Positions 8,159 through 29,782 of a stretch of DNA of 64,000 bases are shown here, one piece after another. Location of the stretch: positions 25,367-89,366 of the forward strand of contig JANQNK010000003.1 of the NCBI GenBank assembly GCA_028279595.1, in the 5' to 3' direction. The stretch's first letter is position 1. Each line of letters starts with the position of its first letter. The position numbers and the translations under genes are program-made. This stretch comes from Thermoplasmatota archaeon (lineage in GTDB: Archaea > Thermoplasmatota > JAKEGO01). Below the pieces are notes generated by a model. That model saw only the letters and a list, made by a program, of their open reading frames with translations. It searched no databases and had not been told where the DNA came from.

Positions 8159-8245
8159 GTGGGGATAGCCAAGCCTGGTATGGCGATAGCCTGCTAAGCT
8201 ATTGGCGGTTACGCCTCGGGGGTTCAAATCCCCCTCCCCACGCCA
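8159..8245 (+). tRNA. tRNA-Ser (anticodon GCT)
   Basis: The acceptor stem is GTGGGGA/TCCCCAC and the D-arm is GCCA..TGGC. The anticodon stem-loop ATAGC-CTGCTAA-GCTAT gives anticodon GCT. It has a long variable arm (TGGCGGTTACGCCTC) and T-arm GGGGG-TTCAAAT-CCCCC. Discriminator G and CCA are encoded. A TTAAAT box lies ~31 nt upstream. Confidence 0.9.
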
Positions 8246-8270
8246 TTTATCAGTAATCTATTCCGAAGGC

Positions 8271-8398
8271 GTGGGGAGTTGGGTCTCGAACCCCGGAATG
8301 GGCGGGGTTGTTTCGAAATTGATAGCAGTATTCTCAAACCAATTTCGAAACCCAGGTGGCGCGTAGCGTCACCATGGCAAATCCCCCTCCCCACGCCA
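8271..8398 (+). pseudogene. tRNA-Ser-derived tRNA-like element (rearranged paralog, pseudogene or att-site remnant)
   Basis: It shares the 5' GTGGGGA and 3' CAAATCCCCCTCCCCACGCCA termini with tRNA-Ser(GCT). It keeps a GATAGC anticodon-stem remnant and a variable-arm-like hairpin, but no canonical D or T arm can be formed. It contains a perfect 12-bp inverted repeat (8310-8321 / 8340-8351). Confidence 0.4.
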
Positions 8399-8451
8399 TT
8401 TATAATAATATTCAGAAAACGGTTAAGTAAACTCCTGTATCTACCGAAGCG

Positions 8452-9471
8452 ATGGACCTTGTGTTCCTTTCGGTATCGGTCGGTTTCCTTGCGTTCCTTC
8501 TCTACCTCTCGGCATGGTTCGCGGGGTCCGAGACGGCATTGACCCATCTCACGGTCGGACAGGTCGCAGAGATGAAGAGGGACCGGGTCAAAGGCTACAG
8601 GTACATCGAATGGCTGAAGCTCGAGATGGACAGGAGCATCATCGCTATCCTGATCGGTAACAACATCGTGAACATTCTGATGTCTGTGGTGGCTGCCCTG
8701 ATCGCTGACTCACTGTTCTCCACTGTCGGCGTAACCATAGCGGTCGGCGTCATAACTTTCCTCATCATCGTCGTCGCGGACATCACACCGAAGTCGATAG
8801 CGATACTGGACACTGACAGGATAGTCCGGAGGAATGCACGGAGCATCTACTTCATGGTGAGAGCGTTGGGGCCTTTGGTGACCGTCTTCTCGCGATTGTC
8901 GATGGGGCTCATCCGGCTTCGCGGGCACAAACCTCGCAGGAAGAACCTCGTCGTCTCCGAGGAGAGGATAATGGCCCTAGCCACCCTGAGCGAGGAGGAG
9001 GGCGTCATCAAGGAGATCGAGAGGGAGATAATCCACAAGGTGTTCAAGTTCGGGGACAAGCGCGTCGCGGAGGTCATGGTACCGATCTCCGACGTCTTCA
9101 GCATCCCGTCCGGAACATCGCTCGAGGATTCTGCGATCAAGGTCTCGGAGAGCGGCTTCACCCGGGTTCCGGTGGTCAAGGACGGCCGCATCGAGGGGAT
9201 CCTCTACGGAAAGGACCTCCTTGTGGCGGATAGCCAAACCGCCGACGACCTCGCAAGGGAGCCGATGACCGTCGGTGCTGCCGACGAGATAACCGATGTC
9301 TTCGACAGGATGAGATCGAGTCACGTGCACCTGGCCGTCGTGATCGGCAAGGCCGGTGCACAGGTGGGGATAATCACCATGGAGGACATCATCGAGGAGC
9401 TTGTCGGCGAGATCGAGGACGAGTTCTCCGAAGTTCAGAGCGGGAAGACCCCTGCACGAACCGGACAATAA
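8452..9471 (+). CDS. CNNM/CorC/HlyC-family transporter (DUF21 membrane domain plus CBS pair)
   Basis: 339 aa. Four N-terminal TM helices are followed by a tandem CBS region (VAEVMVPISDVFSIP...VHLAVVIGKAGAQVGIITMEDIIEEL). This is the typical CorC/HlyC architecture. Confidence 0.8.
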   Translation: MDLVFLSVSVGFLAFLLYLSAWFAGSETALTHLTVGQVAEMKRDRVKGYRYIEWLKLEMDRSIIAILIGNNIVNILMSVVAALIADSLFSTVGVTIAVGVITFLIIVVADITPKSIAILDTDRIVRRNARSIYFMVRALGPLVTVFSRLSMGLIRLRGHKPRRKNLVVSEERIMALATLSEEEGVIKEIEREIIHKVFKFGDKRVAEVMVPISDVFSIPSGTSLEDSAIKVSESGFTRVPVVKDGRIEGILYGKDLLVADSQTADDLAREPMTVGAADEITDVFDRMRSSHVHLAVVIGKAGAQVGIITMEDIIEELVGEIEDEFSEVQSGKTPARTGQ

Positions 9472-9580
9472 GGATCATCATCCGCTTGATGTGGAGGGAA
9501 CTCCCAATAGGTCCCTCAAGCCATTTCTCAACACAAACGATTATTTCCCAATGGTCCCTTAGGGAAGATGGAGGCCTCGA

Positions 9581-10732
9581 ATGGGACGAAGGTACGCCAT
9601 TATCGGAGCGGGAAGGATCGGCATCGCTGCAGCATACGATCTTGCCATCAACGGGAATGCGGATGAAGTATCATTCATCGATCAGAACGTACAGATGGCC
9701 AGCGACGCCGCTGAACGTCTGAACAGGCTCTTGGACAGGGACGTCGGACAGATGGTGAAGATCGACGTCGAGGACATCACGAAGTTGAGGGGCGTTCTCC
9801 GCGGTGTGGATGCCATCGTCTCTGCTGTCCCATATCATCTGAACATGACGGTACAGCGGGCGGCCATCGATGTTGGGGCGCACATGTCAGACCTCGGAGG
9901 AAACACCGGCATCGTGCGGGCACAACTGGCCCAGTCCGGGGAAGCCAAGGATGCCGGCGTGACGATCGTTCCCGATTGCGGCATGGGACCGGGAATGAAC
10001 GTATCTCTCGCCATGCTCTCCACGACCCACGTCGAGAAGCCTGAGATTGTCCAGATCTGGGACGGCGGCCTGCCCCAGGATCCTGTTCCCCCATGGAACT
10101 ATGAACTCACGTTCAACGTCGGCGGACTGACCAACGAGTACTACGGAAGCGCTACCTTCCTGAAGGACGGAAAGGTGACCAACGTACCTGCATTAAGCGG
10201 TTACGAGGTCGTGGACATCCTGCCGCTCGGAGAACTCGAGGCCTTCGTGACCAGCGGCGGCCTGTCGACCATGCCCTGGACCATGGAGGGACGGCTCCAG
10301 CGACTGGAGAACCGGACCCTTAGATACCTCGGTCACCACGAGCGGATGGTCGCCTACGAACAGCTCGGCATGCTGGAGCTTGAGCCTGTCGAGGTAGGAG
10401 ATCTTGAGATCGTTCCGAGGGACGTCTTCCACTCACTTCTGGAGCCGAGGGTCACCCGACCCGACACGAGGGACATCTGTTTGATCAAGGTGTTTTGCCA
10501 GGGGAAGTCGAGTGAGGCCACGATCACACTGGTGGATCGCTACGACGAAGCCACGGGATTCACCGCAATGCAACGTCTTACGGGATGGCATGCCTCACTT
10601 GTCGCCCTCATGGCCGTCGACGGGAGGATCGATCGGGGTGCCGTATCGGTGGAGAATGTTGATCCTGAGGGAGTTCTGAAGGAGGCAAGGGACAGGGGAT
10701 TCCAGATCGACATCGTAGTTGAGGACACCTGA
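9581..10732 (+). CDS. Saccharopine dehydrogenase-like NAD(P)-binding oxidoreductase
   Basis: 383 aa. It has an N-terminal Rossmann motif (YAIIGAGRIGIAAAYDL) and the domain organisation of the Sacchrp_dh family. Confidence 0.7.
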   Translation: MGRRYAIIGAGRIGIAAAYDLAINGNADEVSFIDQNVQMASDAAERLNRLLDRDVGQMVKIDVEDITKLRGVLRGVDAIVSAVPYHLNMTVQRAAIDVGAHMSDLGGNTGIVRAQLAQSGEAKDAGVTIVPDCGMGPGMNVSLAMLSTTHVEKPEIVQIWDGGLPQDPVPPWNYELTFNVGGLTNEYYGSATFLKDGKVTNVPALSGYEVVDILPLGELEAFVTSGGLSTMPWTMEGRLQRLENRTLRYLGHHERMVAYEQLGMLELEPVEVGDLEIVPRDVFHSLLEPRVTRPDTRDICLIKVFCQGKSSEATITLVDRYDEATGFTAMQRLTGWHASLVALMAVDGRIDRGAVSVENVDPEGVLKEARDRGFQIDIVVEDT

Positions 10733-10828
10733 GCCGGCGGCGAATGGAATAACACAACGCCTCCCTACGCCTACTCTACAATGCCAGTTATCTTAACGAA
10801 TGTGATGACTTGCTCAGACCTTAACATA

Positions 10829-11383
10829 TCATTTTGTAACAGCGTCCCACAGGACGTCGAAACTATCTTCCAATTCCTTTTCATTGATCTTCTTTCGTTT
10901 AGAAAATTCCATTATGAAGACCTGATGCAGTGTAAACAGAATATTACCGAACATTTCATACGAATATTCTTTCAGGGTACCCTTCTTCATTTCCTCTTCA
11001 TATGCAACCCGATATTTCTTCAGCATTGCTGCAGATGCCAATTGGCTCTCCTTTGAGATGTATTTGGAATTCAGAAAGAGGGTAAAGAAGAGGTTGTAAT
11101 CCATATTCTTCAAGGACCACTTGGTATATCCTATCCAGAATTTCTTCAGTTTCAATTCAAAATCATCTTCTTCAACGTAATATGAGTTCATATCTTCGAG
11201 CATATCATTTTTAATGTGCATATACGCTGCATTCATCAGGGCTTCCTTTGTCTTATAATGGTAGAATAGCGTTCCTGAGGCTACGCCCGATTCTCTGGTG
11301 ATTTGAGCTGTGGGGGTGTTCTCGAATCCTTGTTCGACGAATAGTCTGATCGCGGTTTCCAGGATTTTCTGTTTATTATTCAT
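10829..11383 (-). CDS. TetR/AcrR-family transcriptional regulator
   Basis: 184 aa. It has an N-terminal HTH (ILETAIRLFVEQGFENTPTAQITRESGVASGTLFYHYKTKEAL). The gene is AT-rich (~38% GC) and lies 36 bp downstream of the hydrolase gene, so it is probably in the same operon. Confidence 0.85.
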   Translation of the reverse strand: MNNKQKILETAIRLFVEQGFENTPTAQITRESGVASGTLFYHYKTKEALMNAAYMHIKNDMLEDMNSYYVEEDDFELKLKKFWIGYTKWSLKNMDYNLFFTLFLNSKYISKESQLASAAMLKKYRVAYEEEMKKGTLKEYSYEMFGNILFTLHQVFIMEFSKRKKINEKELEDSFDVLWDAVTK

Positions 11384-11419
11384 TCAAGCACTTCAACGAT
11401 TATCATTGATGTATTCCGT

Positions 11420-12316
11420 TTACTTCATATACTTATCGAACCAGCCAAGAATGGGTTTTGGATTGGTACCAATCCAGTCGTAAGCAGCCATTCGGTTGAA
11501 GTTGGCATTCTTCAACTTGGGAATCTCTATCCAGAGCATTTTCTTCTCTACCTTCAGGTCATTGTAATATGTGTTAACAAATTTCTCATCAAGGTAGCCA
11601 TCGTTCTTGTTCTGAATTACTAATGTTGGAATATTGATCGTCTTCACATTATGCATAAATGTATTTGTCGAGTAATCGATCCCTGTTCGGTTTTTGATCT
11701 TTTTATTAACACTTTTAATAAATAATTTAGGCAATGCCCCAGCTTGAATGAACGTCTGATAATCCAGGGGTTGGACAGATACCATGGCTTTCAGATTCTT
11801 GTACTCCCTCAAGCCATCTTCATCCCCGAAAGCATTGGTGGATGCAGCCTGTCCCATACAGATGCTAAATAACCCGATCTTGGCATTTTCATATTCCTTA
11901 TGGTTCGATATGAATTTTACAGCGGCGATGATATCTTTCCTTTCTTCAAGACCCCAGGTGACCCAGGGAATGGTCCCCAAACCACTATTCCCGTGTGCTC
12001 TGAAATCATACATTAGAACGGAATATCCAGAATCATTGAGGTATTTCGCCTGTCTTAGGAAATGTACATCCTTGTGGTATCCTTTAACCATTCCCTTTCC
12101 CTCAAGCGTATAACCTGATCTGCTGCATTGAATCCCGAAATGAGATTGTATTATTACTTTATCCTTGGCGCCTTTGATCAACCATCCTGAAAGTTTTACG
12201 CCATCCGAAGTATCAAATTTGACGTTCTCATAATCAAGACCATACTCCTTTGGATCATCGAACACTTGACCCTGATAAGGTTTAATCATCGCATCTGTCA
12301 GTAAATTCGCAATCAT
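11420..12316 (-). CDS. Alpha/beta-hydrolase-fold protein (dienelactone-hydrolase/BAAT-like)
   Basis: 298 aa. The motif YDFRAHGNSG with a following nucleophile elbow (CMGQAAS) resembles an alpha/beta hydrolase. The gene is AT-rich and sits in the island. Confidence 0.55.
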   Translation of the reverse strand: MIANLLTDAMIKPYQGQVFDDPKEYGLDYENVKFDTSDGVKLSGWLIKGAKDKVIIQSHFGIQCSRSGYTLEGKGMVKGYHKDVHFLRQAKYLNDSGYSVLMYDFRAHGNSGLGTIPWVTWGLEERKDIIAAVKFISNHKEYENAKIGLFSICMGQAASTNAFGDEDGLREYKNLKAMVSVQPLDYQTFIQAGALPKLFIKSVNKKIKNRTGIDYSTNTFMHNVKTINIPTLVIQNKNDGYLDEKFVNTYYNDLKVEKKMLWIEIPKLKNANFNRMAAYDWIGTNPKPILGWFDKYMK

Positions 12317-12349
12317 TTATTCACTTCCTGGAATCACATCTACAACTTA

Positions 12350-12375
12350 ACTGAGTACTCAGTCAGTATTTAAAC
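12350..12375 (-). promoter_or_regulatory. Perfect 14-bp palindrome ACTGAGTACTCAGT next to a TATTTAAA box; putative TetR operator and promoter of the hydrolase-TetR operon
   Basis: A perfect palindrome at 12350-12363 lies between the TATA-like box (12368-12374) and the ATG at 12316. Its arms GAGT/ACTC resemble the palindromes at 15740 and 19595. Confidence 0.45.
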
Positions 12376-12506
12376 TTTATCCATAACTCCTGCACTTTCT
12401 ACGTTGAGAACTGTAGTAATTTACCTCGCACGGTATATAGTCCGATAGAACCGAGCTGAAGTCCCCACACTCTATACCAGTTTCATTGATTCATGGTGCA
12501 GTTCGA

Positions 12507-13073
12507 TCACTTCTTGATCATATCCCACAAGGTAGGGAAGAACTTCTCAATCACCTTCGGGTCCTTGAGCTTCCTTGACGATAGGTAGAGTATGGTAAAA
12601 TTGACGTGTGACATTATCGCCTCCGATAGATAATCCATCGGGAGGTCCTTGATGAGTCCCTCGTCGACAGACCTTTGATAAATGTCTCCCATAAGGTCAA
12701 ATTCCGCAGAGAATTCATCCATTGTGAGCTTGGTGATATATGGCGATGACTTATACATCGCTAGAAATTTCATCTGATTCGGATTCTTTATCCCCCAGGC
12801 GATGCCGATATCCCAGAATGTTTTCACAGCCTCCTCGTTCAACAAGGAATCCTCGGTCAATTGCGGGAAAATGCCCATGAACTCCTGCTTCGTCCCGAGG
12901 TAGAGTTCATTGATCAGTGCCTCCTTGTTCTCGAAGTAGGAGAAGAGTGTCCCAGTACCGACGCCAGCGTCCTTTGTGATACTGGTTGTGGACGTATTGT
13001 CGAATCCTCTTGTCACGAAGAGCTTCAGTGCGCTCCTCATGATGGCATCCCTCTTATTCATCTTTTCACTCAT
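12507..13073 (-). CDS. TetR/AcrR-family transcriptional regulator (paralog of 18126-18716)
   Basis: 188 aa with the HTH AIMRSALKLFVTRGFDNTSTTSITKDAGVGTGTLFSYF. It is ~70-75% identical to the ORF at 18126-18716. It lies 13 bp downstream of the RND exporter gene. Confidence 0.85.
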   Translation of the reverse strand: MSEKMNKRDAIMRSALKLFVTRGFDNTSTTSITKDAGVGTGTLFSYFENKEALINELYLGTKQEFMGIFPQLTEDSLLNEEAVKTFWDIGIAWGIKNPNQMKFLAMYKSSPYITKLTMDEFSAEFDLMGDIYQRSVDEGLIKDLPMDYLSEAIMSHVNFTILYLSSRKLKDPKVIEKFFPTLWDMIKK

Positions 13074-13086
13074 TGTACCACTTAAC

Positions 13087-15702
13087 TCACTTATTGTATT
13101 TTTTTCTATTGCCCGACCTCTGCCTTCGAGATGAGGATCGAGTCCTAGCGATTTTCTTGCGAGCTAGCGGATGGATACGACGTCCCTTCGCAGTAGTCCT
13201 AGCCCATACGACCAGTATGCTTGGCTGTATGAACACCGAGGCCAGTAACGAATAGAGGATCATAAGAGCGGTCAGAGTGCCGAACTGCTGCATCATTCCC
13301 TGCGGGGATAGCGCAAGGATGCCAAAGCCTACCATCGTGGTCACAGCTGCGCCGAAGAGTGCTGTGCCGGTGTGGCTAACTGTAGTGATCACAGCCTTCT
13401 CTATTCTACCATGGTCCTCGAGCTCTTCCGTGAATCGGTGGGTAACATGAATTGCATAGGTCACTCCGAGACCGATGCTGAGTGATCCGATGAGAAGCGT
13501 CATTACATTCAGAGATATGTCGAGGAGGAACATGGTGCCATGGATCCATATGAGTACTAAAATGACCGGGAGTGTGGTGATGATCCCCAAGCTCTTCGAT
13601 TTTACCGAGTTCCAGAATACCAGGGAAAGTACTACAGAGGAAACGACCACAGTGATAATGATCGATGTCAGCATAGAATCATTGATCGCTCCGAGAACGA
13701 GGTTCATTATCACTGGTTCTCCAGTAAGTATCACCCTGTTCACGGTACTCTTCGACTCGAGTCTCTCCAAGGGCGCGGCGTCATCTTCAATGTACGAGAT
13801 TATTTCATCGGTCTTGGAATGTCCCTGTGAGTCTACCCTGATCCGGATCAAGGCGACAGTATATTTTCCGCTATCTTCATCGAAGTACAGGACATTGTCG
13901 AGTTCTCCTGGGTGGTTCTCTGTGATGTACTCGAATAGAACGCTAACATTCGAATCCGGAACATTGTCATCATCAAGATCCTCTGCTCGATACATGGCCT
14001 CGAAATCGGGATCGTAGAGGTCCCCATCGGATACGGTGGACACGTTGGCGAGGTCTCTCATGACCGTAAGCGGGGATTCCACACCATTCCCACCTTGAAA
14101 GAGTATTATCTCTCTATCATCGTTCTCGATGTTCGTATGTGTGGCATCCATGGCCTCGAGCACCTCCGTGGTTGCTACGTTTTCACCTTCGACATAGATG
14201 ATCACGGATTCCTCGGAGAAGTCGAACTCGGTCTGCATGTACTCGAACTCGTCTCTGACCTCGCTACCCTCAGGCAATCCTGCCTCGACGAAATTGAATG
14301 TTGTGGATACCATAGTTGCCAATACCAGCAATATCAGGGTTATTGCAGTCGCTGCCGTCAGTGTCCATTTGGGATGGGATCCCGCAATCTTCCCCCCAAA
14401 ACCCATTGCTTTCGTAAATCCAACCGAGATCGGATTTCTGGTACCGATACCGGAAGCCCTGTCCTTGTTAGACGGTGAGAGGAGATCTTTCCCCTTCTTA
14501 ACTCTGTATGTGTCAATAAGAACCCTACAGGCTGGAACGAAGGTGACGAACACGATATAGGCCGCTAGGATACCTACTGCGACCGTGATCCCGAACTCGC
14601 GGATTGGACCTATATCGGATGTTCCGTTCGATAGGAAACCGATCATACTGGTGAAGGCAGCGAGGAGGAGGGCTGCTCCGGCGGAGACAATGGAGATATC
14701 CGCAGCCTTTCTCACTGTATCACCTTGGGCGATCCGTTCCCTGTATCTCATAGTAAGATGTATGCTGTAGTCCACCCCAAGTCCGATCAGCAAGATGGGG
14801 ACTATGGTGGCAGCCTCGGATGTGTAACCCATGTATATCATGAAGCCTTGGATCCATATCAGAGAGAAAACCAGAGCGAGCAGGCCTATCATCAGATCGC
14901 TTATCGTGCGGAACGTGATCCATAGAACGACGATGATCATTCCAAATGCAATGGGGAACAAGGTGTTCATGGTATAATCCCAACCCTCTTCCATCGTATC
15001 GTTGATCTTCGTGTTCGTGAGCGCGAATGGCCGAACGGAGGAATATTTCCTCTCGGAGACCACCTTGTCAATTCTCCGCTCGATGCGCTCGATCCTATCA
15101 TCTCGATCTTCAGATGTCTCACCAGGCAATATTGTCTTATCAACAGTGACCATCATGAGTGCAGAACGATATTGGCCACCATTTTCTGAGGATGTCAGAA
15201 TATGAATTAATGCTCCAAGGTCAGGGATCTCCAGAGAATCGTTGAATACGCTCCTCAATTCGCTGTTGGTCATATTTCCGTATGATGAGACCAGTGATGA
15301 ATGGTTCCCAGCTTCAGGAAACGCTAGAGGTGCGAGGAGTCGGGGAAGGCTGATGATCCCATCCTGGGAAAGGTTTCCAGATATGACGTCATCCTCTCTC
15401 AATGAAGATTCTAGCTCGAGCATACCGATGAAACAATCAGTCGAAATGATGTCCAGATCCTTATCGGGGGAATTCTCGTGAACCAATACAATGACGTTGT
15501 GGCTCTGGCTGAATTTCTCATCGATATCATCCCTCGCGTCAACCGCCTCATCCCCAGGTATCCATGCATCTTCACCCTGCAAGTCGGCGGCGGGAACGGT
15601 CAAGATGATACCCATCATTATCATCGTGACCAGTACTACGGCCCCGATCGTCAATTCTGGTCTTCCTGTGACCATCTTGCTGACGTTTTTCAATATCTTC
15701 AT
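13087..15702 (-). CDS. RND-superfamily exporter (MMPL domain, COG1033-like)
   Basis: 871 aa. It has two 6-TM bundles, each preceded by a large extracytoplasmic loop, and the typical MMPL/SSD region ...GIGVDYSIHLTMRYRE... and ...GLGVTYAIHVTHRF.... The gene is AT-rich. Confidence 0.85.
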   Translation of the reverse strand: MKILKNVSKMVTGRPELTIGAVVLVTMIMMGIILTVPAADLQGEDAWIPGDEAVDARDDIDEKFSQSHNVIVLVHENSPDKDLDIISTDCFIGMLELESSLREDDVISGNLSQDGIISLPRLLAPLAFPEAGNHSSLVSSYGNMTNSELRSVFNDSLEIPDLGALIHILTSSENGGQYRSALMMVTVDKTILPGETSEDRDDRIERIERRIDKVVSERKYSSVRPFALTNTKINDTMEEGWDYTMNTLFPIAFGMIIVVLWITFRTISDLMIGLLALVFSLIWIQGFMIYMGYTSEAATIVPILLIGLGVDYSIHLTMRYRERIAQGDTVRKAADISIVSAGAALLLAAFTSMIGFLSNGTSDIGPIREFGITVAVGILAAYIVFVTFVPACRVLIDTYRVKKGKDLLSPSNKDRASGIGTRNPISVGFTKAMGFGGKIAGSHPKWTLTAATAITLILLVLATMVSTTFNFVEAGLPEGSEVRDEFEYMQTEFDFSEESVIIYVEGENVATTEVLEAMDATHTNIENDDREIILFQGGNGVESPLTVMRDLANVSTVSDGDLYDPDFEAMYRAEDLDDDNVPDSNVSVLFEYITENHPGELDNVLYFDEDSGKYTVALIRIRVDSQGHSKTDEIISYIEDDAAPLERLESKSTVNRVILTGEPVIMNLVLGAINDSMLTSIIITVVVSSVVLSLVFWNSVKSKSLGIITTLPVILVLIWIHGTMFLLDISLNVMTLLIGSLSIGLGVTYAIHVTHRFTEELEDHGRIEKAVITTVSHTGTALFGAAVTTMVGFGILALSPQGMMQQFGTLTALMILYSLLASVFIQPSILVVWARTTAKGRRIHPLARKKIARTRSSSRRQRSGNRKKYNK

Positions 15703-15735
15703 TCAGATCACCACGGTGACTGTTATTCATATCCA

Positions 15736-15806
15736 TTTCGAGTGACTAATCACTCAATAACATTGGGAGTATATATAATTATTGATTGAGCAGTCACTCA
15801 ATAATT
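15736..15806 (-). promoter_or_regulatory. Conserved operator/promoter element, copy 1: palindrome GAGTGA-CTAA-TCACTC (15740-15755), TATA box (15768-15782) and palindrome ATTGAG-CAGTCA-CTCAAT (15785-15802)
   Basis: It lies 40-100 bp upstream of the RND exporter start. It is ~80% identical over ~75 bp to the element at 19591-19660. Confidence 0.5.
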
Positions 15807-15868
15807 CGGGTCGTATCAAATCTGATGAATGATCTCAGCGATGTCCATTCGATCCAACGGGTCTTGCT

Positions 15869-16861
15869 CTATGGGACGTTGAGCCTTTCCAATCCGACTA
15901 TACCATAACTGGAATCGACCAGTTTGTTTGCCTTTTCAATATCCCGGGCATTTGGATTGGGGGATTCCATCGGCCAACCGCCTTTCTTACATTGCTTGTC
16001 CCTGTAGAGCACACTCTGTTGGCTGAAATAGGCTCCCGAATGCCTCGGTGCGTCATCAGAGAGCAGACAGTGAAGTGACGTCTGAGCGGACTCCTCGTTG
16101 CTGTTGGTCCAGAAGGGATAGATCGGTGCCATCAGCACCCTCATGATCGTCATCAACAGACCTTTGCCACCGAAGTTCGACCTCGCCCAACCCGGATGTA
16201 CGGAAGCCGTTGTTACACCGGTACCCTCGAGCCGATTGGCAAGTTCTAAAGCGTATAATACATTCGCGACCTTTGCCTCTCCATAAGCCGCGAAGTTTTT
16301 GAATTTCCTTGATTGATAGTTCAGGTCTTCAAGGTGGACATCATGCCTGTTCTTTGGGCTGCCTGCATGAACGACGGACGAAAGAATTACTATCCTCGAA
16401 GGAGCGCTCTTCTTCAATACATCAAGCAGCAGTTCCGTCAACAGGAAATGGCCGAAATAGCTGACCCCTATGGTCATCTCTAGGTCATCCTTCGTACGCT
16501 GGATCTCCCGACCCATCGTCACAAGCCCTGCATTGCATGCTAGACCGTCCAGTCTGTCATATTTCTTCAAGAATTCAGCGACGAAATCCCTCACCGATTG
16601 GAGGTCGGCAAGATCTATCCTCATCACATCATAACTCCCTTTCAGTCCCTTGAAGCTCTTGGCCACCTCCTCTCCCGCTTCCGTTCTCCTACATGCCATG
16701 ACCACATGTCCACCCTGCTTCACAAGCTGTCTTGTCGTCTCAAGACCTACTCCCGAATTGGCCCCGGTTACGATGTACACCTTTCCGCTCATATCTTTAG
16801 CGAGGGTCTTCTCATCGACCCATATGACATCCTTTCTACCCATTCTCATCACCACTTTCAT
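15869..16861 (-). CDS. Short-chain dehydrogenase/reductase (SDR; retinol-DH/WWOX-like)
   Basis: The TGANSGVG cofactor motif and the catalytic YxxxK region (YGEAKVANVLYALE) are present. The N-terminus overlaps the upstream LtrA stop, so the true start may be at an internal Met (16849/16843). Confidence 0.8.
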   Translation of the reverse strand: MKVVMRMGRKDVIWVDEKTLAKDMSGKVYIVTGANSGVGLETTRQLVKQGGHVVMACRRTEAGEEVAKSFKGLKGSYDVMRIDLADLQSVRDFVAEFLKKYDRLDGLACNAGLVTMGREIQRTKDDLEMTIGVSYFGHFLLTELLLDVLKKSAPSRIVILSSVVHAGSPKNRHDVHLEDLNYQSRKFKNFAAYGEAKVANVLYALELANRLEGTGVTTASVHPGWARSNFGGKGLLMTIMRVLMAPIYPFWTNSNEESAQTSLHCLLSDDAPRHSGAYFSQQSVLYRDKQCKKGGWPMESPNPNARDIEKANKLVDSSYGIVGLERLNVP

Positions 16862-18125
16862 TTCTCCGATTGACAGTCAATTCATCCATTTCTTCTGGGA
16901 TCAGGCCTCTCATCCAAGTCATCATTGCCGCGATTATTGGTAGGAAGAGAAGTACGTTGGTGATTACGAGTATTTGGGTCGCCCCCAGGTCCAGAAGGCC
17001 GAAGGGGAGCAGCAGGATTGCCGCGATGGGTAATACCTTCCTGCCCACAGCCAACGGTCGTTCGAATTCTCTAGCTATCTGCAGGGTCTTGACCAAAAGA
17101 GCGATCGATACAAGAACAATGGAAAGGGATACGATTATCGACCAACGCACCCCATCGGGAAGATGGTCTCCCTCGTGTTCTATCATGTAAAGGATCGAGG
17201 CTCCGATGACGGTTATCCCTGCGGTCATTGGGAGATGGAGGTAGAACCATCTCATCGTGTTTGACATCCCCGGGCGGGGCAGTCGACTAGAGACCGTGTC
17301 GAAGTATGTCCACCAGATACCGACCGCCAAAAGGGTACCAAGCATCACCTTGGTGCCGAGCTCCCACGTGATATCATGGTGATCTGCAGCTCCGCTGACA
17401 ACGCTGAACACTATCTCTCCGAGGACGATGATGGTTAGGAGACCAAACCTTTCACTCAGTGAAGGGCTGACACTTGAACCGATCTCGAGCTGTTTCCGGG
17501 CTTCAGGATTCCTCCGACCGATCGCAATGAGCATGGTCGGAAGTATGAGGGAAAGGACGAAAGCGAGAGCCCAGAGATAGAACCGGGCCGGTGGTGCAAT
17601 GAAGATCGAACCCGCGAACAGGACGGTATTGAGTAGGAATACCGCTGAATACGGACCCGACAATGGACGGTGATCCGGGTCATGTACTCCCGTCCTCCAC
17701 CAGAGGAACGTCAGGATGAGCTGGAAACCGGCGTAGGAAAGGGCGAATCCCCGCGACGTATCACCCATGGCATCGTGCGCGAAGATCGCCATCATCACGA
17801 CAGTTGCCATCTGGAGGAAGGTGAAGACCCTCGTCCGGATGTCGTCGTTACCATGTACATCGTGGTACAGGGATCCGTTCAACCACGCCCACCAGACTAA
17901 GACGAACAGGAAGGAGAACTCACCGATGCCTACCCAGGTTATGTGGTGAACCAGCGCATGGGAGAGTTGAGCGATGAGTGCCACGTAGACGAGGTCGTAG
18001 AACAGTTCGAGGAACGTCACTGTTCGATGCTCGGGACGATCCCCTGCCCTTCTTGGTGGTTGCCACCAATGATGTAAGGTCCTAGGACGGGTCCTCATAC
18101 GCCGATGTCCCCCCTGTCGATCCAT
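16836..18125 (-). CDS. Low-temperature-requirement A (LtrA)-family integral membrane protein
   Basis: 429 aa and polytopic. The N-terminal motif VTFLELFYDLVYVALIAQLSH...WWAWLNGSLYHDVHG is characteristic of bacterial LtrA (PF06772). Confidence 0.65.
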   Translation of the reverse strand: MDRQGGHRRMRTRPRTLHHWWQPPRRAGDRPEHRTVTFLELFYDLVYVALIAQLSHALVHHITWVGIGEFSFLFVLVWWAWLNGSLYHDVHGNDDIRTRVFTFLQMATVVMMAIFAHDAMGDTSRGFALSYAGFQLILTFLWWRTGVHDPDHRPLSGPYSAVFLLNTVLFAGSIFIAPPARFYLWALAFVLSLILPTMLIAIGRRNPEARKQLEIGSSVSPSLSERFGLLTIIVLGEIVFSVVSGAADHHDITWELGTKVMLGTLLAVGIWWTYFDTVSSRLPRPGMSNTMRWFYLHLPMTAGITVIGASILYMIEHEGDHLPDGVRWSIIVSLSIVLVSIALLVKTLQIAREFERPLAVGRKVLPIAAILLLPFGLLDLGATQILVITNVLLFLPIIAAMMTWMRGLIPEEMDELTVNRRNESGDENG

Positions 18126-18716
18126 TCACTTCCGGATCATATCCCATCCGGTCGGAAAGAGATCCTCTATGACCTTCGGGTCCTTGATCTTCCTGGATGT
18201 GAGATAGAGTATCGTGGCATACATGTGAGAGGTCGTTGCCTCCATCAGGTAGTCGATGGGCAGGTCCTTTATCAGACCCTCCTCGATCGATCTTTGATAC
18301 AGGTCTCCCAGTAACTCCATTTCATCGGCGATCTCGGATTGCGTGAGCTTGGTGATGTAAGGTGAGGACTTGTACATCACGATGAACTTCATCTTGTCAG
18401 GATTCCTGATCCCCCAGTTGATGCCCAGGTCCCAGAACGTTCTGACGACCTCCTCGGTCAGTAGGGTATCGTCCGACAACGGCGGGAAGATTCCCATGAA
18501 CTCCTTCTTGGTCTCAAGATAGAGCTCGTTGATGAGCGCTTCCTTGCTGTCGAAGTAGTTGAACAGCGTCCCTGTCCCCACCCCGGCATTCTTGCTTATG
18601 TTGGCCGTGGACGTGTTGTCGAAGCCCTTGGTCGTGAAGAGCTTCAATGCGCTCCTCATGATCGCTTCCCTTTTGTCCTTTGGCTTACTCATCGCTACCG
18701 TATCCTCCTGAACCAT
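18126..18716 (-). CDS. TetR/AcrR-family transcriptional regulator (paralog of 12507-13073)
   Basis: 196 aa with the HTH EAIMRSALKLFTTKGFDNTSTANISKNAGVGTGTLFNYF. Its stop abuts the LtrA start. Confidence 0.85.
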   Translation of the reverse strand: MVQEDTVAMSKPKDKREAIMRSALKLFTTKGFDNTSTANISKNAGVGTGTLFNYFDSKEALINELYLETKKEFMGIFPPLSDDTLLTEEVVRTFWDLGINWGIRNPDKMKFIVMYKSSPYITKLTQSEIADEMELLGDLYQRSIEEGLIKDLPIDYLMEATTSHMYATILYLTSRKIKDPKVIEDLFPTGWDMIRK

Positions 18717-18750
18717 TTATTACTTGCTCCATACTCGAACATCCTGAGCT

Positions 18751-19575
18751 TCACCTGAAGGCCCGCCGGATCATCCGGTCGTATCCTCGGTCGCCAAAGA
18801 GCCTTCTCATCCAGATCATCGTCCTTGCCATCTGGCCCTTGACATATCTGGTCTTTGGTTTCCTCACGGTCGCAGCCTTAGCGATCGTCTCTCCAAGAAC
18901 CTCCGGATCGGTACCCATCGTTTGCATCCTCGGGCTGTCCATTAACTTGAGGTATGGATCAATCTGACCTTTGTATGCATTTCCATTATCGTACTTTTTC
19001 AACTGTTCTCCGACGACAGCACCAAAGTTCGTCCTTATCGCTCCCGGCTCGATGACCACTACGTCGATACCGAACTCCTTGACCTCGATCCGCAGGCAGT
19101 CAGAGAATCCCTCGATCGCGTGCTTGGTGGCATGGTACCACGCGCCAAGCGGCGTATAGATCTTGCCTCCCATCGAGGATATATTCACTATCCTTCCGGA
19201 CTTCTGCCTCCTCATGTGGGGAAGCACCATCTGGGTCAGCTCGACGAGGCCGAAGTAGTTCACATCGAACTGGTATCTACCATCCTCCATGGGAACGAGT
19301 TCCACGGGACCGTAGAGGCCGAAGCCGGCGTTGTTTATCAGTATGTCGATTCGACGGTCCTTTTCAAGGATCATATCCACCGCTCGCCTGTTGTCTTCGG
19401 TCTTTGAAACGTCCATGCCTATTGGTACGATCCCGAATCTCTTCAGGTCCTCCATCTTGTCGACGCTTCTCGCTCCTGCGTAAACCTTGTGTCCCTGTTT
19501 CGCGAGGATTTTGGCAGCTTCCTTCCCCATTCCGGAGGAGGCTCCCGTAATCAACACAATCTTCTTTTCCATCAT
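18751..19575 (-). CDS. SDR-family oxidoreductase (classical)
   Basis: 274 aa with TGASSGMG, NNAG and YHATKHA (YxxxK) motifs. Confidence 0.85.
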   Translation of the reverse strand: MMEKKIVLITGASSGMGKEAAKILAKQGHKVYAGARSVDKMEDLKRFGIVPIGMDVSKTEDNRRAVDMILEKDRRIDILINNAGFGLYGPVELVPMEDGRYQFDVNYFGLVELTQMVLPHMRRQKSGRIVNISSMGGKIYTPLGAWYHATKHAIEGFSDCLRIEVKEFGIDVVVIEPGAIRTNFGAVVGEQLKKYDNGNAYKGQIDPYLKLMDSPRMQTMGTDPEVLGETIAKAATVRKPKTRYVKGQMARTMIWMRRLFGDRGYDRMIRRAFR

Positions 19576-19590
19576 TTCCTCAACCTCCTT

Positions 19591-19660
19591 ATTGATTGAC
19601 TAATCAGTCATGTATGGGCTAGTATATATAGTTATTGATTGAATAGTCAGTCAACAATTT
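19591..19660 (-). promoter_or_regulatory. Conserved operator/promoter element, copy 2 (TGATTGACTAATCAGTCA palindrome, AGTATATATAG TATA box, ATTGATTGAATAGTCAGTCAACAAT)
   Basis: It lies 20-85 bp upstream of the SDR gene start (19575). It is ~80% identical to copy 1. Confidence 0.5.
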
Positions 19661-19726
19661 GTATAGGTACTGGCTCCCTATCAACCATAGAAAAATACTT
19701 GTAAATTGTCCTGAAATTCGCTTCAC

Positions 19727-21235
19727 TCAAGTATGTCGCCGCTTTCTCCGGTCGACTGCGATGAAGAGTGTTATGATCGCCAAGGCCACCGGCAGGATAG
19801 GCAGTTCAGGAACCTTCTGAGGTGCGCTGTTCTCGGTGTAGTTAATCAATGGATATCGATCCTCCGCACCTGCACTTCCATCGATAGAATATTCGGTCTC
19901 TCCGATGCCATCTCCGTTGCTGTCCGTTCCGTTATAATCTGACCAGTAGTTACCGTGGGTCCCGTTGTCCCAGGTGTTCTTACTGTTGTTGTCGTACCCT
20001 TGCGAGGTGCTCTCACCATTGCTGAGGAAGTTGTTGTGATGGATGACATTATCATAGCTGTCGGCGATGACGCAACCGTAGTCGGTATTGTTGAAGATCT
20101 CATTGTAAGAGACGGTGTTGTTGTTCGAGAAATCATCCAGATCGATCCCATGGATACCGTTCGAATTAACTGTATTGTTACCAATGTCGTTCCTGTAAGA
20201 TGAATCAGAATAGATCCCAGTTTCGTTGTTTGAGCTCACGATGTTATGTAGAAAAATATTGTTCCCGCCCTGATTGATATGGATGCCGTCACCGCTGTTC
20301 ATGCACACAGTGTTGTTCGAGACGTTGTTTCTGAATGCTTCGTAGAAGTATATCCCATACTCACCGTTGGAAATCGCGTTGTTATTACTTATTGAGTTGG
20401 GACCAAAAATGTATCTTAAGTATATTCCATATCGACCGTTCGAGGTCAAATCGTTATCTTTGATGATATTATTGTCACTTGATCTGCTGTAATTCGTTTT
20501 CACACTAAAAGTAGAAATGAGCTTGATACCCAGGTCAGAATTCGCACTTGCATTATTGTCCTTTATTGTGTTGTATGTCGAGGCATCGAGGTATATACCA
20601 AAATAATTTGAACTGACACTATTGTTCTCGATCACAGTGGTGTTGCTGTCGCGTTTAAGATAGATTCCAACATTATTGTGGGTAACGACATTGTTGGAAA
20701 TCGAATTGTTGTTCGAGCCCTTTTGGAAGATACCCGAATCAGTGTTCGAACCGATCAGATTGTACTCAACGGTATTGAAATTGCTCGAGGAGTTCAGGAA
20801 GATGCCATCTCCGCCGTTCCAGCTGATGTTACAATTGACGATCGTGCAGTTCTCTACAGAGGTTAGTAGGATGCCAGAATCAAGGTAGGCTGATCCTGAT
20901 CCAGTAATTTGAAGATGAGATAAATTGACATTATCCGCAGTTATGTTGAGCGTGATCCCACTACCAGTCGCATTTACTATGGTGTTCGAGGAACCATTCC
21001 CGATCAGTGAAAGACTCTTGTTCACAAGAACGTTCTCGAGATACGTCCCATTGAACACGTAGATCGTGTCCCCGTCCGATGATGCGTTAATAGCGTCCTG
21101 TATCGAAGAATGATCGGCCCAACCACCATCATCATCGACGGTAAAGGTCTCTGCTTTGATAGTTGGAAGCGCTTGAAGTGCTATCACGAGGACCATCATC
21201 GTGATCAGCAACCTGGCAATGAATTCCGTCGCCAT
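19727..21235 (-). CDS. Secreted right-handed beta-helix (NosD/PbH1 repeat) protein with a C-terminal TM and basic anchor
   Basis: 502 aa. There is an N-terminal signal peptide. The module TFTVDDDGGWADHSSIQDAINASSDGDTIYVFNGTYLENV is homologous to the N-terminus of the 2028-aa ORF. It has many N-x-S/T sequons and parallel beta-helix repeats. The C-terminus is PILPVALAIITLFIAVDRRKRRHT. The gene is AT-rich. Confidence 0.7.
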   Translation of the reverse strand: MATEFIARLLITMMVLVIALQALPTIKAETFTVDDDGGWADHSSIQDAINASSDGDTIYVFNGTYLENVLVNKSLSLIGNGSSNTIVNATGSGITLNITADNVNLSHLQITGSGSAYLDSGILLTSVENCTIVNCNISWNGGDGIFLNSSSNFNTVEYNLIGSNTDSGIFQKGSNNNSISNNVVTHNNVGIYLKRDSNTTVIENNSVSSNYFGIYLDASTYNTIKDNNASANSDLGIKLISTFSVKTNYSRSSDNNIIKDNDLTSNGRYGIYLRYIFGPNSISNNNAISNGEYGIYFYEAFRNNVSNNTVCMNSGDGIHINQGGNNIFLHNIVSSNNETGIYSDSSYRNDIGNNTVNSNGIHGIDLDDFSNNNTVSYNEIFNNTDYGCVIADSYDNVIHHNNFLSNGESTSQGYDNNSKNTWDNGTHGNYWSDYNGTDSNGDGIGETEYSIDGSAGAEDRYPLINYTENSAPQKVPELPILPVALAIITLFIAVDRRKRRHT

Positions 21236-21405
21236 ATGAATCCCGAACCTGGGTATGGATTTCGCTTAGTTAACAATGTCCATTTGGCCATTGAACCAGT
21301 CAATTTCACAAATAGCTGTATAATTATCTAAACATGGTTATATGACGGAAATCCGGTGATAACCCCACCAAGCATTATAAACGTCAACGAACGATATCGG
21401 AGACT

Positions 21406-24400
21406 ATGCGAGCCGTTGCAGTCGACCGCGCGCTCTGTATATGTATGTGTTTTGGGATCGTTCTCCTATTCCTGGGAACCGTCACAGCGGTTACCCGTAT
21501 AGTGGACGATGACGGTGGTGGATGGGCCGACTTCACGACTGTCCAGGACGCTGTCGACGCGTCCAGCAATGGCGATAGGATCCGTATCTTTACTGGCACA
21601 TACGTCGAGAACGTCGATGTCGATGTTCCAGTAACGATCATCGGGAACGGAACGGGTGCAGTCACCATCGATGGTGACGGGTCCGGCGACTCACTCCTGC
21701 TTTCCGCCGACTGGATCAATGTCAGCGGTCTGCGGACGTCACAGGCGGATGGATACCCGAACGCCGGCATACACATCACGGGTGACAACTGCAACGTGTC
21801 CGGCGTATTGACCCGCGACAACTATTTCGGTATATTCATCGACGGCGCAACCGATTGCGCCATCCACTCCTGCGAGGTCAGGGACAACTATGGCAGCGGG
21901 ATCCACCTCCAGGAGAGTCATGGCAACACGATCTGGGGCAATACCATCGTGGATAACAATCTCGTTACACCCTCGGACGCTGACCTTATCGGCGAATGGT
22001 CCATGGACGAAGCCTCATGGACAGGGACCCCCGATGAGGTCACTGATACTTCCGGCTCGGACCTGCACGGAACCTCGTCCGGCGGAGTGGACACCTCGGC
22101 GACATCGATAGCCGGCCGGTCCGGCCGGTTCGATGGCTCCGACGACCTGGTCACTGTGGGCGACGATCCGGCCCTCGACATCACCACGGAGATGACCCTG
22201 GAGGCCTGGATGTACGCCGAAGGTGATGTCGCATCCGGGGATATCCATTTCCCTTACTTCGAGTTCGACTACTCGAGCTCTGCCTATCCCGACATCCTGC
22301 ATCTCGATGGTAGACTATATGCCGTTCTCTACACGGGTCCAGGGTCGGATGGCTTCGTCAGGACCCTGTGGCTGTCCGACAACGGTGTCATCGAGGTCGC
22401 TGACAGCTACGAGTTCGACAACTCCTATGGCGGTTATCCCTCTGCGGTGAAGGTCACCGATGGGATCATCGCCGTGGCCTATCAGGGGCCCGGGAACGAT
22501 GGGTTCCTCGCGACCATCGGCTACTCTTCGGACGGTACGATAACGACCCCCGTCATCAATTCAGTCGAATTCCACACCTCCGACGGCAGAACGCCCGACA
22601 TCATCCACGTATCGGGCGACGTCTACGCGATCGCGTTCAGAGGACCCGGTTCCGACGGCTTCATAATCACCTACGAGATCGCCTCGGACGGGACCATAAC
22701 CACGCCTGCCATCGACCAGTACGAGTACGACACCTCCAGCGGTGAGTACCCTGACATGGTCCATGTGGCGGGTGACGTCTTCGCGGTGGTCTATCAGGGT
22801 GCCAGCGACGACGGATTCGTCAGGACCATCGAGATCGCGAGCGACGGGACGATCACAACGCCTTACATCGACTCCTACGAGTTCGATACCACTTATACGG
22901 GACTTCCCCGGATCGTCCAAGTGTCGGGAGATACGTTCGCGGTCACCCACAGGTCGTCCTCCCTCCAGGGATACCTGAGGACACTGGACATCGCTTCGAA
23001 CGGGACGATCTCAGGCCAGCTCGACTCCCTCGTGTTCGACAGCAACATGTGTTACGCTCCAGTGCCCATTCACATGACCGGGGATATCTTCGCGGTCGTC
23101 TACAGGGGGCCCGGCGACGATGGTTGGACCGTTACCCTAGATATCCCGTCGAACGGGGACCTCTCCGCCGGACTTACCGACAGGTTCGAGTTCGAACCGT
23201 CCACCGCCATCTATGGTGAACCGATCCGACTGGCGGACGGCATGGTCGCGGTCGCGTTCCGCGGTCCTGGTTCCGACGGCTTCATCAGTACGTTCGCAAT
23301 CGACGGGAGCGGGACCATGTCCGGTCACAGGGCGGTCCTCGAAGCCTCGAGCGCATACGAATCGAGCGCCGTTCACGTCAGCGGAGAGGTCTACGCGGTA
23401 GCATTCCGCGGTGCCTTCTCCACTGGACGTCTGGTGACTGTGACGATAGCCGACAATGGCACGATGGGAGCCGTGGTCGACACCGTCTTCTTCCAGGACG
23501 AATACGCGGTGAATCCGAACCTCATCCACATCTCCGGTACCACGTACGCCATCGCCCACACCGGACCGGGGAACCTGGGCGACCTGATCACCATCGACAT
23601 CGCAGCGGACGGGAACATCGGTGCCAGTCCACTGGACTCATACAGGTTCGACACCTCCTACTGCTACAAGCCGGACCTCCTCCACGTCTCCGGGGACATA
23701 TACGCCGTCGCCTACGAGGGGCGGAGCAGCGACGGATACGTCAGGACCCTGGAGATCGCATCCAACGGCACGATCGCACAATCTGCGGTGGACTCCTACG
23801 AGTTCCACACCTCGAACGGCAGGGACCCATCGATAGCCCATGTCTCCGGAGACGTCTACATCCTTGCGTTCAGGTCGGGCGGCAACGACGGTTTCGTCAG
23901 GACCTTCGACATGGCGTCCGACGGGAACATCGGAGGGACCATCGACACCTACGAGTTCGACACCTCCAACGGTTACGACCCTGACATCATCCACATCGCT
24001 GGAGATACATATGCCGTGGCCTACCAGGGATCTGGATCGGACGGCTTCATTCGGACGATCGAGGTGGAGACCGATGGTGACATCGATACTCCCTACAACG
24101 ACAGCCTGGAATACGACACATCGGCCGGCAGGACGCCGGACATCTTCCGGATCGACGGAGATACCTTCGGGATCGCCTACAGGGGCTCCAGCGACGACGG
24201 GTTCGTCCGGACCATGGACATCGCGGTCGATGGGTCGATCAGTGCGGTCGTAGATACCCTCGAGTTCGACACGAGCGACGGAGGCGAGCCCTGCGTTCTC
24301 ATGCTTTCCAGCGGGGTCTACGCAGCCTTCTACAGGGGCGGCGACATCGACGGCAAGGTAGCCTCGATGGACATATCGGATGCGGGAGCCGTGGGCGGGG

Positions 24401-29781: not shown

Positions 29782-29782
29782 A

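Follow-up and report, generated by a model that had tools for sequence, protein, structure and literature searches.

Analysis of a 64,000-nt stretch of contig JANQNK010000003.1 (the window, with all positions counted from its first letter) showed a low-GC stretch at 10751-21405 with nine genes, which formed the interior of a hypervariable locus of about 19 kb (8.25-27.5 kb). The stretch is probably an accessory island that was built up in steps by horizontal acquisition, at a recombination hotspot anchored on a tRNA gene. The nine genes (10829-21235) were all on the minus strand and tightly packed, with intergenic gaps of at most 190 nt, and all island open reading frames (ORFs) were intact with full-length domain coverage. 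The genes of the locus, together with the first conserved gene on its right, are as follows:

8452-9471, plus strand: CNNM/CBS transporter gene, in a cassette at 8414-9505
9581-10732, plus strand: saccharopine-dehydrogenase-like gene (SacDH), host-like GC of 0.589, absent at the locus of the relative described below
10829-11383, minus strand: TetR1, in GC block A (see below), GC 0.39, second gene of the hydrolase operon, Pfam TetR_N
11420-12316, minus strand: alpha/beta hydrolase, esterase-like, weak Pfam Hydrolase_4, SICMG elbow with Cys153
12507-13073, minus strand: TetR2, 69% amino acid and 74% nucleotide identity to TetR3
13087-15702, minus strand: MMPL/HAE3-type RND exporter (MMPL), 871 aa, about 12 transmembrane (TM) segments, Pfam MMPL/SSD
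15869-16861, minus strand: SDR1, adh_short, with TGANSGVG and YGEAK
16836-18125, minus strand: LtrA-family membrane protein (16836-18020, 394 aa, in the public record)
18126-18716, minus strand: TetR3, Pfam TetR_N
18751-19575, minus strand: SDR2, PRK06182 subfamily, above cutoff
19727-21235, minus strand: NosD502, NosD/beta-helix surface protein of 502 aa with an N-terminal signal/TM segment and a C-terminal TM anchor, GC 0.447
21406-27492, plus strand: repeat-rich surface protein of 2028 aa, GC like that of the host, without an orthologue in the relative; the variable genes end with it and the conserved flank follows
27497-28357, minus strand: alpha/beta hydrolase of the right flank, first conserved gene of that flank

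Pfam agreed with an earlier note on this DNA, which had listed three TetR, two SDR, one RND/MMPL, one LtrA and one hydrolase gene; the ninth gene, NosD502, was not in its title. The N-terminal TetR helix-turn-helix domain was present in TetR1, TetR2 and TetR3 (PF00440, 50-56 bits, cutoff 24). The MMPL matched PF03176 in two stretches (144 bits) as well as SSD and Patched, and its TM clusters were at 243-474 and 665-834. The protein was called HAE3-like because HAE3 (TIGR00921) was its best NCBIfam model, at 255.9 bits, yet fell below the cutoff of 351.9. Its relatives in the PDB (Dispatched, NPC1, HpnN and MmpL5) are lipid/sterol transporters. LtrA matched PF06772 at 242.7 bits, against a gathering threshold of 31.9, over profile positions 2-352 of 356, with about 10 hydrophobic segments, and a PDB sequence search returned no relative with a solved structure. 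The two SDR proteins scored 104 bits (SDR1) and 164 bits (SDR2) for adh_short, and the cofactor motif TGxxxGxG and the catalytic YxxxK were intact in both (SDR1, TGANSGVG at 32 and YGEAK at 193; SDR2, TGASSGMG at 10, NNAG at 81 and YHATK at 147). No GxSxG was found in the hydrolase, where SICMG at 151-155 places a cysteine at the nucleophile position; its Hydrolase_4 match was weak (29.8 vs 27) and its PDB match, esterase 5g59, was to residues 21-160 only. The 2028-aa protein contained about 20 tandem repeats of 51-52 aa (period 153/156 nt, at about 22.3-25.4 kb), an N-terminal signal/TM segment, NosD/beta-helix repeats at about residues 1450-1545 and a C-terminal TM anchor, and only its first 190 or so residues resembled NosD-family proteins of the relative.

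The GC content of 10751-21405 was 0.476, against 0.594 in a 41-kb core taken from the same window. None of 300 random core windows of the same size was as GC-poor (core minimum 0.570), and the dinucleotide-signature distance (delta*) was 95 against a core null maximum of 39. In 1-kb sliding windows the GC was about 0.58-0.63 over most of the 64 kb, with a trough of 0.40-0.55 at about 10.5-21.5 kb and a second, smaller trough at 36-38.5 kb. At 200-nt resolution both edges of the stretch were sharp: on the left, at about 10.75 kb, 200 nt sufficed for a fall in GC from 0.56-0.59 to 0.37-0.45, and on the right, at about 21.4 kb, GC rose from 0.41-0.45 to 0.56-0.58. The GC at third codon positions (GC3) was 0.46-0.78 in the nine genes and 0.72-0.88 in flanking genes (RpoB/A'/A'', an Ig-like protein, CNNM, SacDH, the 2028-aa protein, TldD and PmbA). 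The low-GC stretch at about 10.75-21.4 kb, reported in the earlier note, was confirmed by the sliding GC, the core windows and the dinucleotide distance, and is far beyond chance. Four blocks were distinguished within it:

10751-12440: GC block A, GC 0.395
12441-15868: GC block B, GC 0.484
15869-19725: GC block C, GC 0.519
19726-21405: GC block D, GC 0.442

Block C corresponds to the intermediate GC that had been noted at 16-19.6 kb. Block A deviated in its GC3 (0.46-0.49) and in its dinucleotide signature (delta* 180 vs a null maximum of 140). Two Logan contigs of run SRR20820740 equalled the window at 100% identity (L081 = 8031-15391; L091 = 15362-28098); they span both GC edges, so both compositional junctions are real in an independent read assembly.

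The window is archaeal, as shown by an RpoA'/RpoA'' split that follows RpoB and by NAC, HypF, Lhr and a protein with a histone fold. The best named matches of SacDH and the MMPL were in Thermoplasmata, MG-III and an unclassified "archaeon", and the host is therefore probably a member of the Thermoplasmatota. No close genome was present in the GTDB-representative collection. The comparator (the relative) consisted of JGI metagenome contigs of a related lineage, which were reached through proteins that cluster at 90% identity with RpoA', CNNM and a methyltransferase. A metagenome scan with TldD for the right flank of the relative gave one distant locus only, and SacDH as a synteny anchor (contig scan and protein search) gave nothing above 60% identity and no shared neighbourhood. 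By blastn, window positions 1-8254 were collinear with contigs L089/L090 of the relative (81.7% nucleotide identity) and positions 27507-41607 with L095 (78.2%), and identities of core proteins were 66-92%. Collinearity on the left stopped at 8254, at the 3' end of a tRNA-Ser(GCU) gene belonging to a divergent tRNA-Glu/tRNA-Ser pair common to both genomes, and resumed on the right at 27507, at the stop of the alpha/beta-hydrolase gene. Between these points the relative shared only the CNNM cassette (8414-9505, matching L093 and L094 at 90.1%) and the C-terminus of NosD502 (19726-20104, matching L093 7432-7810 at 74.9%). An overlap of 5.4 kb at 100% between L093 and L095 joined the CNNM region of the relative to its abhydrolase/TldD/PmbA flank.

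The gene content between the same flanks differed in the two genomes. The window contained CNNM, SacDH, the eight genes TetR1 to SDR2, NosD502 and the 2028-aa repeat protein. In the relative, the tRNA side carried genes for CDF, FTR1, MntP and a surface protein of large size. Its contig that continues into the right flank encoded a protein of 1308 aa, an N-terminal NosD fragment of 65 aa, CNNM, a protein of 490 aa and two giant NosD proteins (1527 and 1127 aa). The DNA specific to the window in this comparison was 9506-19725 (SacDH to SDR2) and the 2028-aa gene, and the island genes TetR1 to SDR2 were missing by blastn at the homologous locus of the sole relative found, an absence that the earlier note had made a check on its proposal. 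The segment 9506-19725 takes in GC-normal SacDH and leaves out NosD502, so the compositional edges differ from the presence/absence edges. NosD502 was the positional homologue of the 490-aa gene (45.6% amino acid identity over the full length, with a conserved C-terminal anchor) and is a member of a native variable surface-protein family. The variable genes of the relative were AT-rich too (GC 0.39-0.52 vs 0.59-0.66 in its core), and low GC is therefore a property of the gene pool of the locus in both genomes. NosD-family surface proteins of both genomes had conserved N-terminal signal and C-terminal anchor modules with divergent beta-helix cores, a module pattern (19727-21235 and L093/L095) that looks like recombination-driven surface variation.

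The second MMPL/SSD transporter gene of the window (MMPL2, 36048-38858; 936 aa, GC 0.508, GC3 0.64) encoded a protein about 28% identical to the island MMPL. It was syntenic in the relative (NAC-MMPL2-HypF; 78% identical), where its GC was 0.544 vs about 0.6-0.66 in its neighbours. Its low GC reflects either an old acquisition or a gene-specific bias.

The left end of the hypervariable locus was marked by the tRNA-Ser gene and sequences derived from it, and a further repeat relic lay inside the low-GC stretch:

8159-8245, plus strand: tRNA-Ser(GCU) (ARAGORN; Rfam, 60.9 bits), left anchor of the hypervariable locus
8225-8250, plus strand: direct repeat copy 1, CAAATCCCCCTCCCCACGCCATTTAT, comprising the tRNA-Ser 3' end and 5 nt
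8269-8297, minus strand: inverted, diverged tRNA 3'-half-like fragment (T-arm and acceptor strand), read from the sequence, inside the 127-bp spacer
8378-8403, plus strand: direct repeat copy 2, a remnant resembling an att site, a short way upstream of the CNNM cassette; at this place a degenerate tRNA-3'-like core is found in the relative
12413-12467, plus strand: eroded boundary repeat (…CCGATAGAACCGAGCTGAAGTCCCC…) at the border of block A (0.395) and block B (0.484)

The 26-bp sequence of copy 1 was present as an exact duplicate (2 copies, 0 expected by chance), and no third copy was found in the window at up to 3 mismatches. The two copies were 153 bp apart with a spacer of 127 bp, and the second was 2.3 kb to the left of the GC edge, so that the island is not between them. 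The low-GC part began 2.5 kb beyond the 3' end of tRNA-Ser, where the variable locus begins. The relic at 12413-12467, in the 190-nt gap between TetR2 and the hydrolase, was detected by nhmmer (E=5e-4 window-wide, 1e-5 among intergenic DNA) on the same strand as the copies of the relative.

In the relative, an exact 27-mer (ACCGGTAAAACCGTGCTGAAATCCCCC) was found at six distinct intergenic sites, and profile searches found at least 7 copies of a unit of about 150 nt containing it, one of them directly before the conserved abhydrolase gene. The array ran from tRNA-Ser to abhydrolase (L089 17568-20675; L093 1219-14177; L094 1577-3203; L095 2061-6129), with all repeats on one strand whatever the gene orientation. 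Most copies carried the tRNA-Ser 3' end, the 27-mer leading into TCCCCACG, and in two copies TCCCCACG ran on into the same 90 or so nucleotides that follow the genuine tRNA-Ser; judged by sequence, these two are attR-like junctions. Every cassette of the relative was bounded by intact repeats of this type; the units so delimited were 1.3-6.4 kb long and contained 1-3 ordinary genes (CDF/FTR1/MntP, CNNM, NosD giants and others). Integrase, replication and virion genes were found in none of the units, whether in the window or in the array of the relative. The boundary repeat and the tRNA-Ser 3'-end motif had no match in IMG/VR, and hence no candidate virus or plasmid carrying an attP was obtained.

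In a third strain (L094), an identical CNNM unit was found behind a Peptidase_M10 gene, with the break in homology inside the repeat. The cassette thus has three different upstream neighbours in three assemblies and, because the neighbour in L094 differs and the break falls inside the repeat, cassette reshuffling at the repeats is directly observed. The CNNM cassette of the window (8414-9505) was 90% identical in nucleotides and 92% in amino acids to that of the relative, while the conserved flanks were only 78-82% identical in nucleotides, which suggests a recent exchange of the cassette between lineages.

The segment 8251-8403 (spacer and copy 2) had a very strong predicted RNA fold (-70.1 kcal/mol, z = -6.1) in the form of a cloverleaf-like four-way junction with an 11-bp acceptor-like closing stem ending in CCA. 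A novel tRNA-like or non-coding RNA gene was considered for this segment and rejected, with no Rfam family and no ARAGORN call, the fold being explained by the inverted tRNA 3'-end fragments. The segment is read as att-site debris, a tRNA-like RNA being the less likely alternative.

Each of the three larger intergenic gaps within the eight-gene run contained one promoter, made up of an AT-rich TATA element and palindromes that all belong to a single family:

12348-12376, minus strand: hydrolase-TetR1 promoter, palindrome AACTGAGTACTCAGTCA (12349-12365) abutting the TATA box TTTAAATA
15739-15800, minus strand: MMPL-TetR2 promoter, palindromes at 15739-15759 and 15780-15800 flanking TATATATAA (15770-15778)
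19593-19653, minus strand: SDR2-TetR3-LtrA-SDR1 promoter, GATTGACTAATCAGTCA (19594-19610) and GATTGAATAGTCAGTCA (19637-19653) flanking TATATATAG (19623-19631)

All three operons carried archaeal TATA-box promoters. The operator motif had 13 strand-matches against 1.4 expected, 12 of which made up five palindromic sites confined to the three promoters. In the double-operator layout one palindrome was upstream of the TATA box, over the TFB-recognition element, and the other downstream, over the start site. Archaeal repressors usually block TBP/TFB or RNA polymerase by operators placed in this way. The segment 9506-19725 would accordingly hold three self-contained TetR-repressed operons (hydrolase-TetR1, MMPL-TetR2 and SDR2-TetR3-LtrA-SDR1), in which each TetR is predicted to bind the palindromes bracketing the TATA box of its own operon and to shut off transcription. 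The double-operator promoters of MMPL-TetR2 and SDR2 were 87% identical over 39 nt and TetR2 and TetR3 69% identical in amino acids; a module of regulator and promoter-operator was therefore probably duplicated within the island, and cross-regulation by TetR2 and TetR3 is possible. The structural genes point to hydrophobic substrates, because the solved relatives of the MMPL are lipid/sterol transporters, the SDR motifs are intact and the hydrolase is esterase-like. A hydrophobic ligand would free the TetR proteins and switch on export by the MMPL, the reduction of carbonyls by the SDRs, the hydrolysis of esters and the membrane protein LtrA, and the three operons may together form a ligand-inducible set for handling envelope lipids or xenobiotics.

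Searches for the origin of the genes gave mixed affinities. The island proteins were all singletons, with no 90%-identity cluster mate outside this organism. The MMPL had best matches of 45-50% identity, LtrA of 52-61% and the hydrolase of 60%; those of flanking SacDH were at 57-60%, in Thermoplasmata and bacteria. No recent transfer from a sampled donor is evident, because the island identities do not exceed 61% and are near those of SacDH. The named LtrA matches were a Chloroflexi bacterium metagenome-assembled genome and Candidatus Leptofilum (Chloroflexota), and the LtrA matches listed from a plasmid database were all bacterial. A Chloroflexi contig (L085; GC 0.526, near that of block C) had the gene order abhydrolase|TetR|TetR|SDR|SDR|LtrA, in which adjacent genes were 53% (SDR, to SDR1) and 60% (LtrA) identical to those of the island, while the island TetR proteins were only 26-28% identical to those of the contig. 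Two further LtrA loci were near an alpha/beta hydrolase gene, one with SDR genes and the other with a TetR gene. Plasmids of Vibrio and Acaryochloris carried homologues that matched the whole length of the hydrolase at 46-50% identity; the one from Vibrio (49.5%) was followed by a gene 49.6% identical to SDR2, and the order on the Acaryochloris plasmid was TetR-SDR-hydrolase. A search of 1.84 billion representatives showed the hydrolase family to be rare (42 at E<1e-30, best match 60%), with no near-identical donor among them. The named top matches of the MMPL were all archaeal (MG-III, Thermoplasmata and an unclassified "archaeon"), its best plasmid matches were haloarchaeal, and its closest homologues were situated among NosD, PKD and other large surface-type genes, with no adjacent TetR.

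The description of the island in the earlier note as a set of bacterial-type genes therefore held for LtrA, SDR1, SDR2 and the hydrolase, which have bacterial affinities and adjacent pairs at 50-60% identity, and did not hold for the archaeal HAE3-like MMPL or for the native NosD502. The best-hit comparison proposed there divided in the same manner, with named matches in Chloroflexota for LtrA and on bacterial plasmids for the hydrolase and SDR2, and archaeal named matches for the MMPL. Because the association of TetR, SDR, hydrolase and LtrA recurs in bacteria, the non-regulatory genes of the hydrolase operon and of the SDR2-TetR3-LtrA-SDR1 operon were probably acquired across domains. As for the proposal of horizontal acquisition in several steps, the four GC blocks, the boundary relic between A and B and the absence in the relative spoke for it.

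These results are best explained by an island that was probably assembled stepwise and horizontally at the tRNA-Ser locus. The locus extends from the 3' end of tRNA-Ser(GCU) to the conserved alpha/beta-hydrolase/TldD/PmbA block, with the low-GC stretch as its interior, and its genes would have been drawn from an AT-richer flexible gene pool of the lineage and added piecewise. The likely route is site-specific or homologous recombination at repeats bearing the tRNA-Ser 3' end; such repeats are intact in the relative and eroded here. Several observations weigh against this explanation. Only one relic lies inside the stretch, with a length of just 55 nt and a score of 14.7 bits, and the breakpoints at 9505/9506 and 19725/19726 had no intact flanking repeats, only chance 9-mers. 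SacDH has a host-like composition inside the segment that is absent from the relative, and MMPL2 is low in GC yet syntenic and 78% identical in the relative, so that low GC alone is no proof of recent acquisition. No island protein exceeded 61% identity to anything sampled, by which the transfers would be old or the donors unsampled, and the donor taxonomy comes from a handful of named matches taken without trees. The comparator is one relative lineage, for which parsimony cannot separate gain here from loss there, and no contig links its tRNA-Ser side (L089/L090) to its CNNM side (L093). The binding of TetR to the operators, the ligands and the physiological role are read from sequence. A classic sign of an integrase-borne island is also missing: no Phage_integrase or other recombinase domain was found in any ORF tested across the 64-kb window, in agreement with the earlier note. 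For a second such sign, flanking direct repeats, the picture is mixed, with no intact repeats around 9506-19725 but one eroded boundary repeat at 12413-12467. The statement in that note that no flanking direct repeats were seen needs amendment, in that tRNA-derived direct repeats do occur nearby (8225-8250 and 8378-8403), bracketing only 127 bp.

An origin of the SacDH-to-SDR2 block by vertical inheritance, with deletion in the relative and low GC due to weak codon selection or slow amelioration, is rather unlikely. MMPL2 gives a precedent for it as a low-GC gene stably syntenic in both genomes, the GC of SacDH is host-like, the best matches of the island (45-61%) are no closer than those of flanking SacDH (57-60%) and the promoters are archaeal. 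Against these stand the GC of 0.395, GC3 of 0.46-0.49 and foreign dinucleotide signature (180 vs 140) of block A, the cassette exchange demonstrated at the locus in the population of the relative, the boundary-repeat relic between two GC blocks and the fact that the homologues of LtrA/SDR1 and of hydrolase/SDR2 are neighbours in bacteria. The relic at 12413-12467 also speaks against a single insertion of one integrative element (a plasmid, integrative and conjugative element or provirus) with later loss of its integrase and a GC mosaic taken over from the donor element. The co-orientation and tight packing of the nine genes would suit such an event, as would the paralogy of TetR2 and TetR3 and the duplicated promoter, which tie blocks B and C, and archaeal elements that lost their integrase once integrated have been documented (PMC8371274). 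However, NosD502 has a positional homologue in the relative and the co-oriented run is therefore not one insert; no replication, conjugation, capsid or integrase genes or remnants were found in the run, with its gaps of at most 190 nt; and neither the repeat nor the tRNA 3'-end motif was matched in IMG/VR. A single insertion is thus improbable.

An assembly or binning artefact, in which a bacterial fragment was mis-joined into an archaeal contig, is highly implausible. The window comes from a metagenome-assembled record, and the junction of the two Logan contigs falls within the MMPL gene, where they overlap by only 30 nt. Yet each GC edge is spanned by one of these contigs, which come from the same run and are 100% identical to the window; the MMPL ORF is uninterrupted and of full length against its homologues (98% coverage), and the island holds an archaeal-type MMPL, NosD genes and archaeal promoters. 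A further possibility, which we regard as speculative and on balance unlikely, is that the tRNA-Ser locus is a dedicated integron-like gene-capture platform of a new type rather than a set of decayed tandem elements. Single genes and small operons, bacterial ones included, would be inserted, excised and reshuffled as integrase-less cassettes, the repeats of about 150 nt that mimic the tRNA-Ser 3' end would serve as recombination sites for a recombinase encoded elsewhere, and the low-GC island would be an old, partly eroded run of such cassettes.

Integrons and CALINs (attC clusters without an integrase) occur in Archaea and have been proposed as a route for cross-domain gene capture (PMC9668308). 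The present locus resembles them as an array of small promoter-less or self-contained cassettes, split by recombination-site-like repeats, with no mobility genes inside. It differs in that the repeats of the relative are near-identical and contain the tRNA 3' end, the cassette genes are on both strands and the operons of the window bring their own promoters. Four copies of the repeat from the relative were folded as single-stranded DNA and rejected as attC-like, with no single long hairpin (z -2.1 to +0.1). The intergenic regions of the window held operator palindromes only and no attC hairpins, and no IntI with attI was found within the 64 kb.

Archaeal tRNA-linked islands, tandem integrated elements and integrase loss after integration have been reviewed in "Archaeal tyrosine recombinases" (PMC8371274). 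The locus is like these islands in its anchor at a tRNA 3' end, its tRNA 3'-end duplicates as direct repeats, its deviant composition, the variation of its content between close relatives and the presence of several units in tandem at one locus. Unlike them, the units here and in the relative are without integrase, replication and virion genes and contain 1-3 ordinary cellular genes, and the repeats of the window are almost wholly eroded, with 26-bp duplicates that bracket 127 bp only.

The operons themselves can be compared with systems of a TetR repressor and an RND/MMPL efflux transporter, such as AcrR-AcrAB and the TetR regulators of mycobacterial mmpL genes. A TetR_N helix-turn-helix regulator is co-operonic with the transporter in both, with palindromic operators in the promoter. 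The island has, in contrast, an archaeal HAE3-like transporter without periplasmic adaptor or outer-membrane partners, and its operators bracket an archaeal TATA box and not -35/-10 elements. The clusters of Chloroflexota contig L085 and of the Acaryochloris and Vibrio plasmids have the same set of families, whereas their gene order differs and here an archaeal MMPL operon is interposed.

Some other features of the window were recorded outside the locus. A gene at 34657-35724 (minus strand) encoded a low-complexity protein very rich in charged residues, with 11 lysines in a row and a tail of acidic residues (D/E), at a GC dip of 0.46 (35.4-35.7 kb); at the equivalent place the relative had a 253-aa gene with no Pfam match. 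At 48454-49401 (minus strand), an ORF that stays open for 315 aa after a GTG had a histone-fold match (CBFD_NFYB_HMF) at its N-terminus; either its start is set wrongly or it encodes an archaeal histone that is much extended at the C-terminus. The ORFs at 42447-43271, 44139-47408 (1089 aa), 47457-47987 and 50282-51600 had no Pfam match at E<=1e-3. A 1761-aa Lhr-type helicase (DEAD, Helicase_C, WH_Lhr and DEAD_assoc) fused to an AlkZ-like DNA glycosylase domain was encoded at 58514-63799 (minus strand).

The island itself is ordinary in kind, and the array of tRNA-3'-end-bearing repeats in the relative is the more unusual feature. With its clear limits, the locus is a concrete case of an uncultured archaeon building accessory functions from a mixed archaeal and bacterial pool at one hotspot, with genes of bacterial affinity (LtrA, the SDRs and the esterase-like hydrolase) apparently re-equipped with archaeal TATA promoters and TetR operators. 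The association of TetR, SDR, hydrolase and LtrA, conserved between Chloroflexota, plasmids of cyanobacteria and Vibrio, and this archaeon, suggests that LtrA has a biochemical role common to them.

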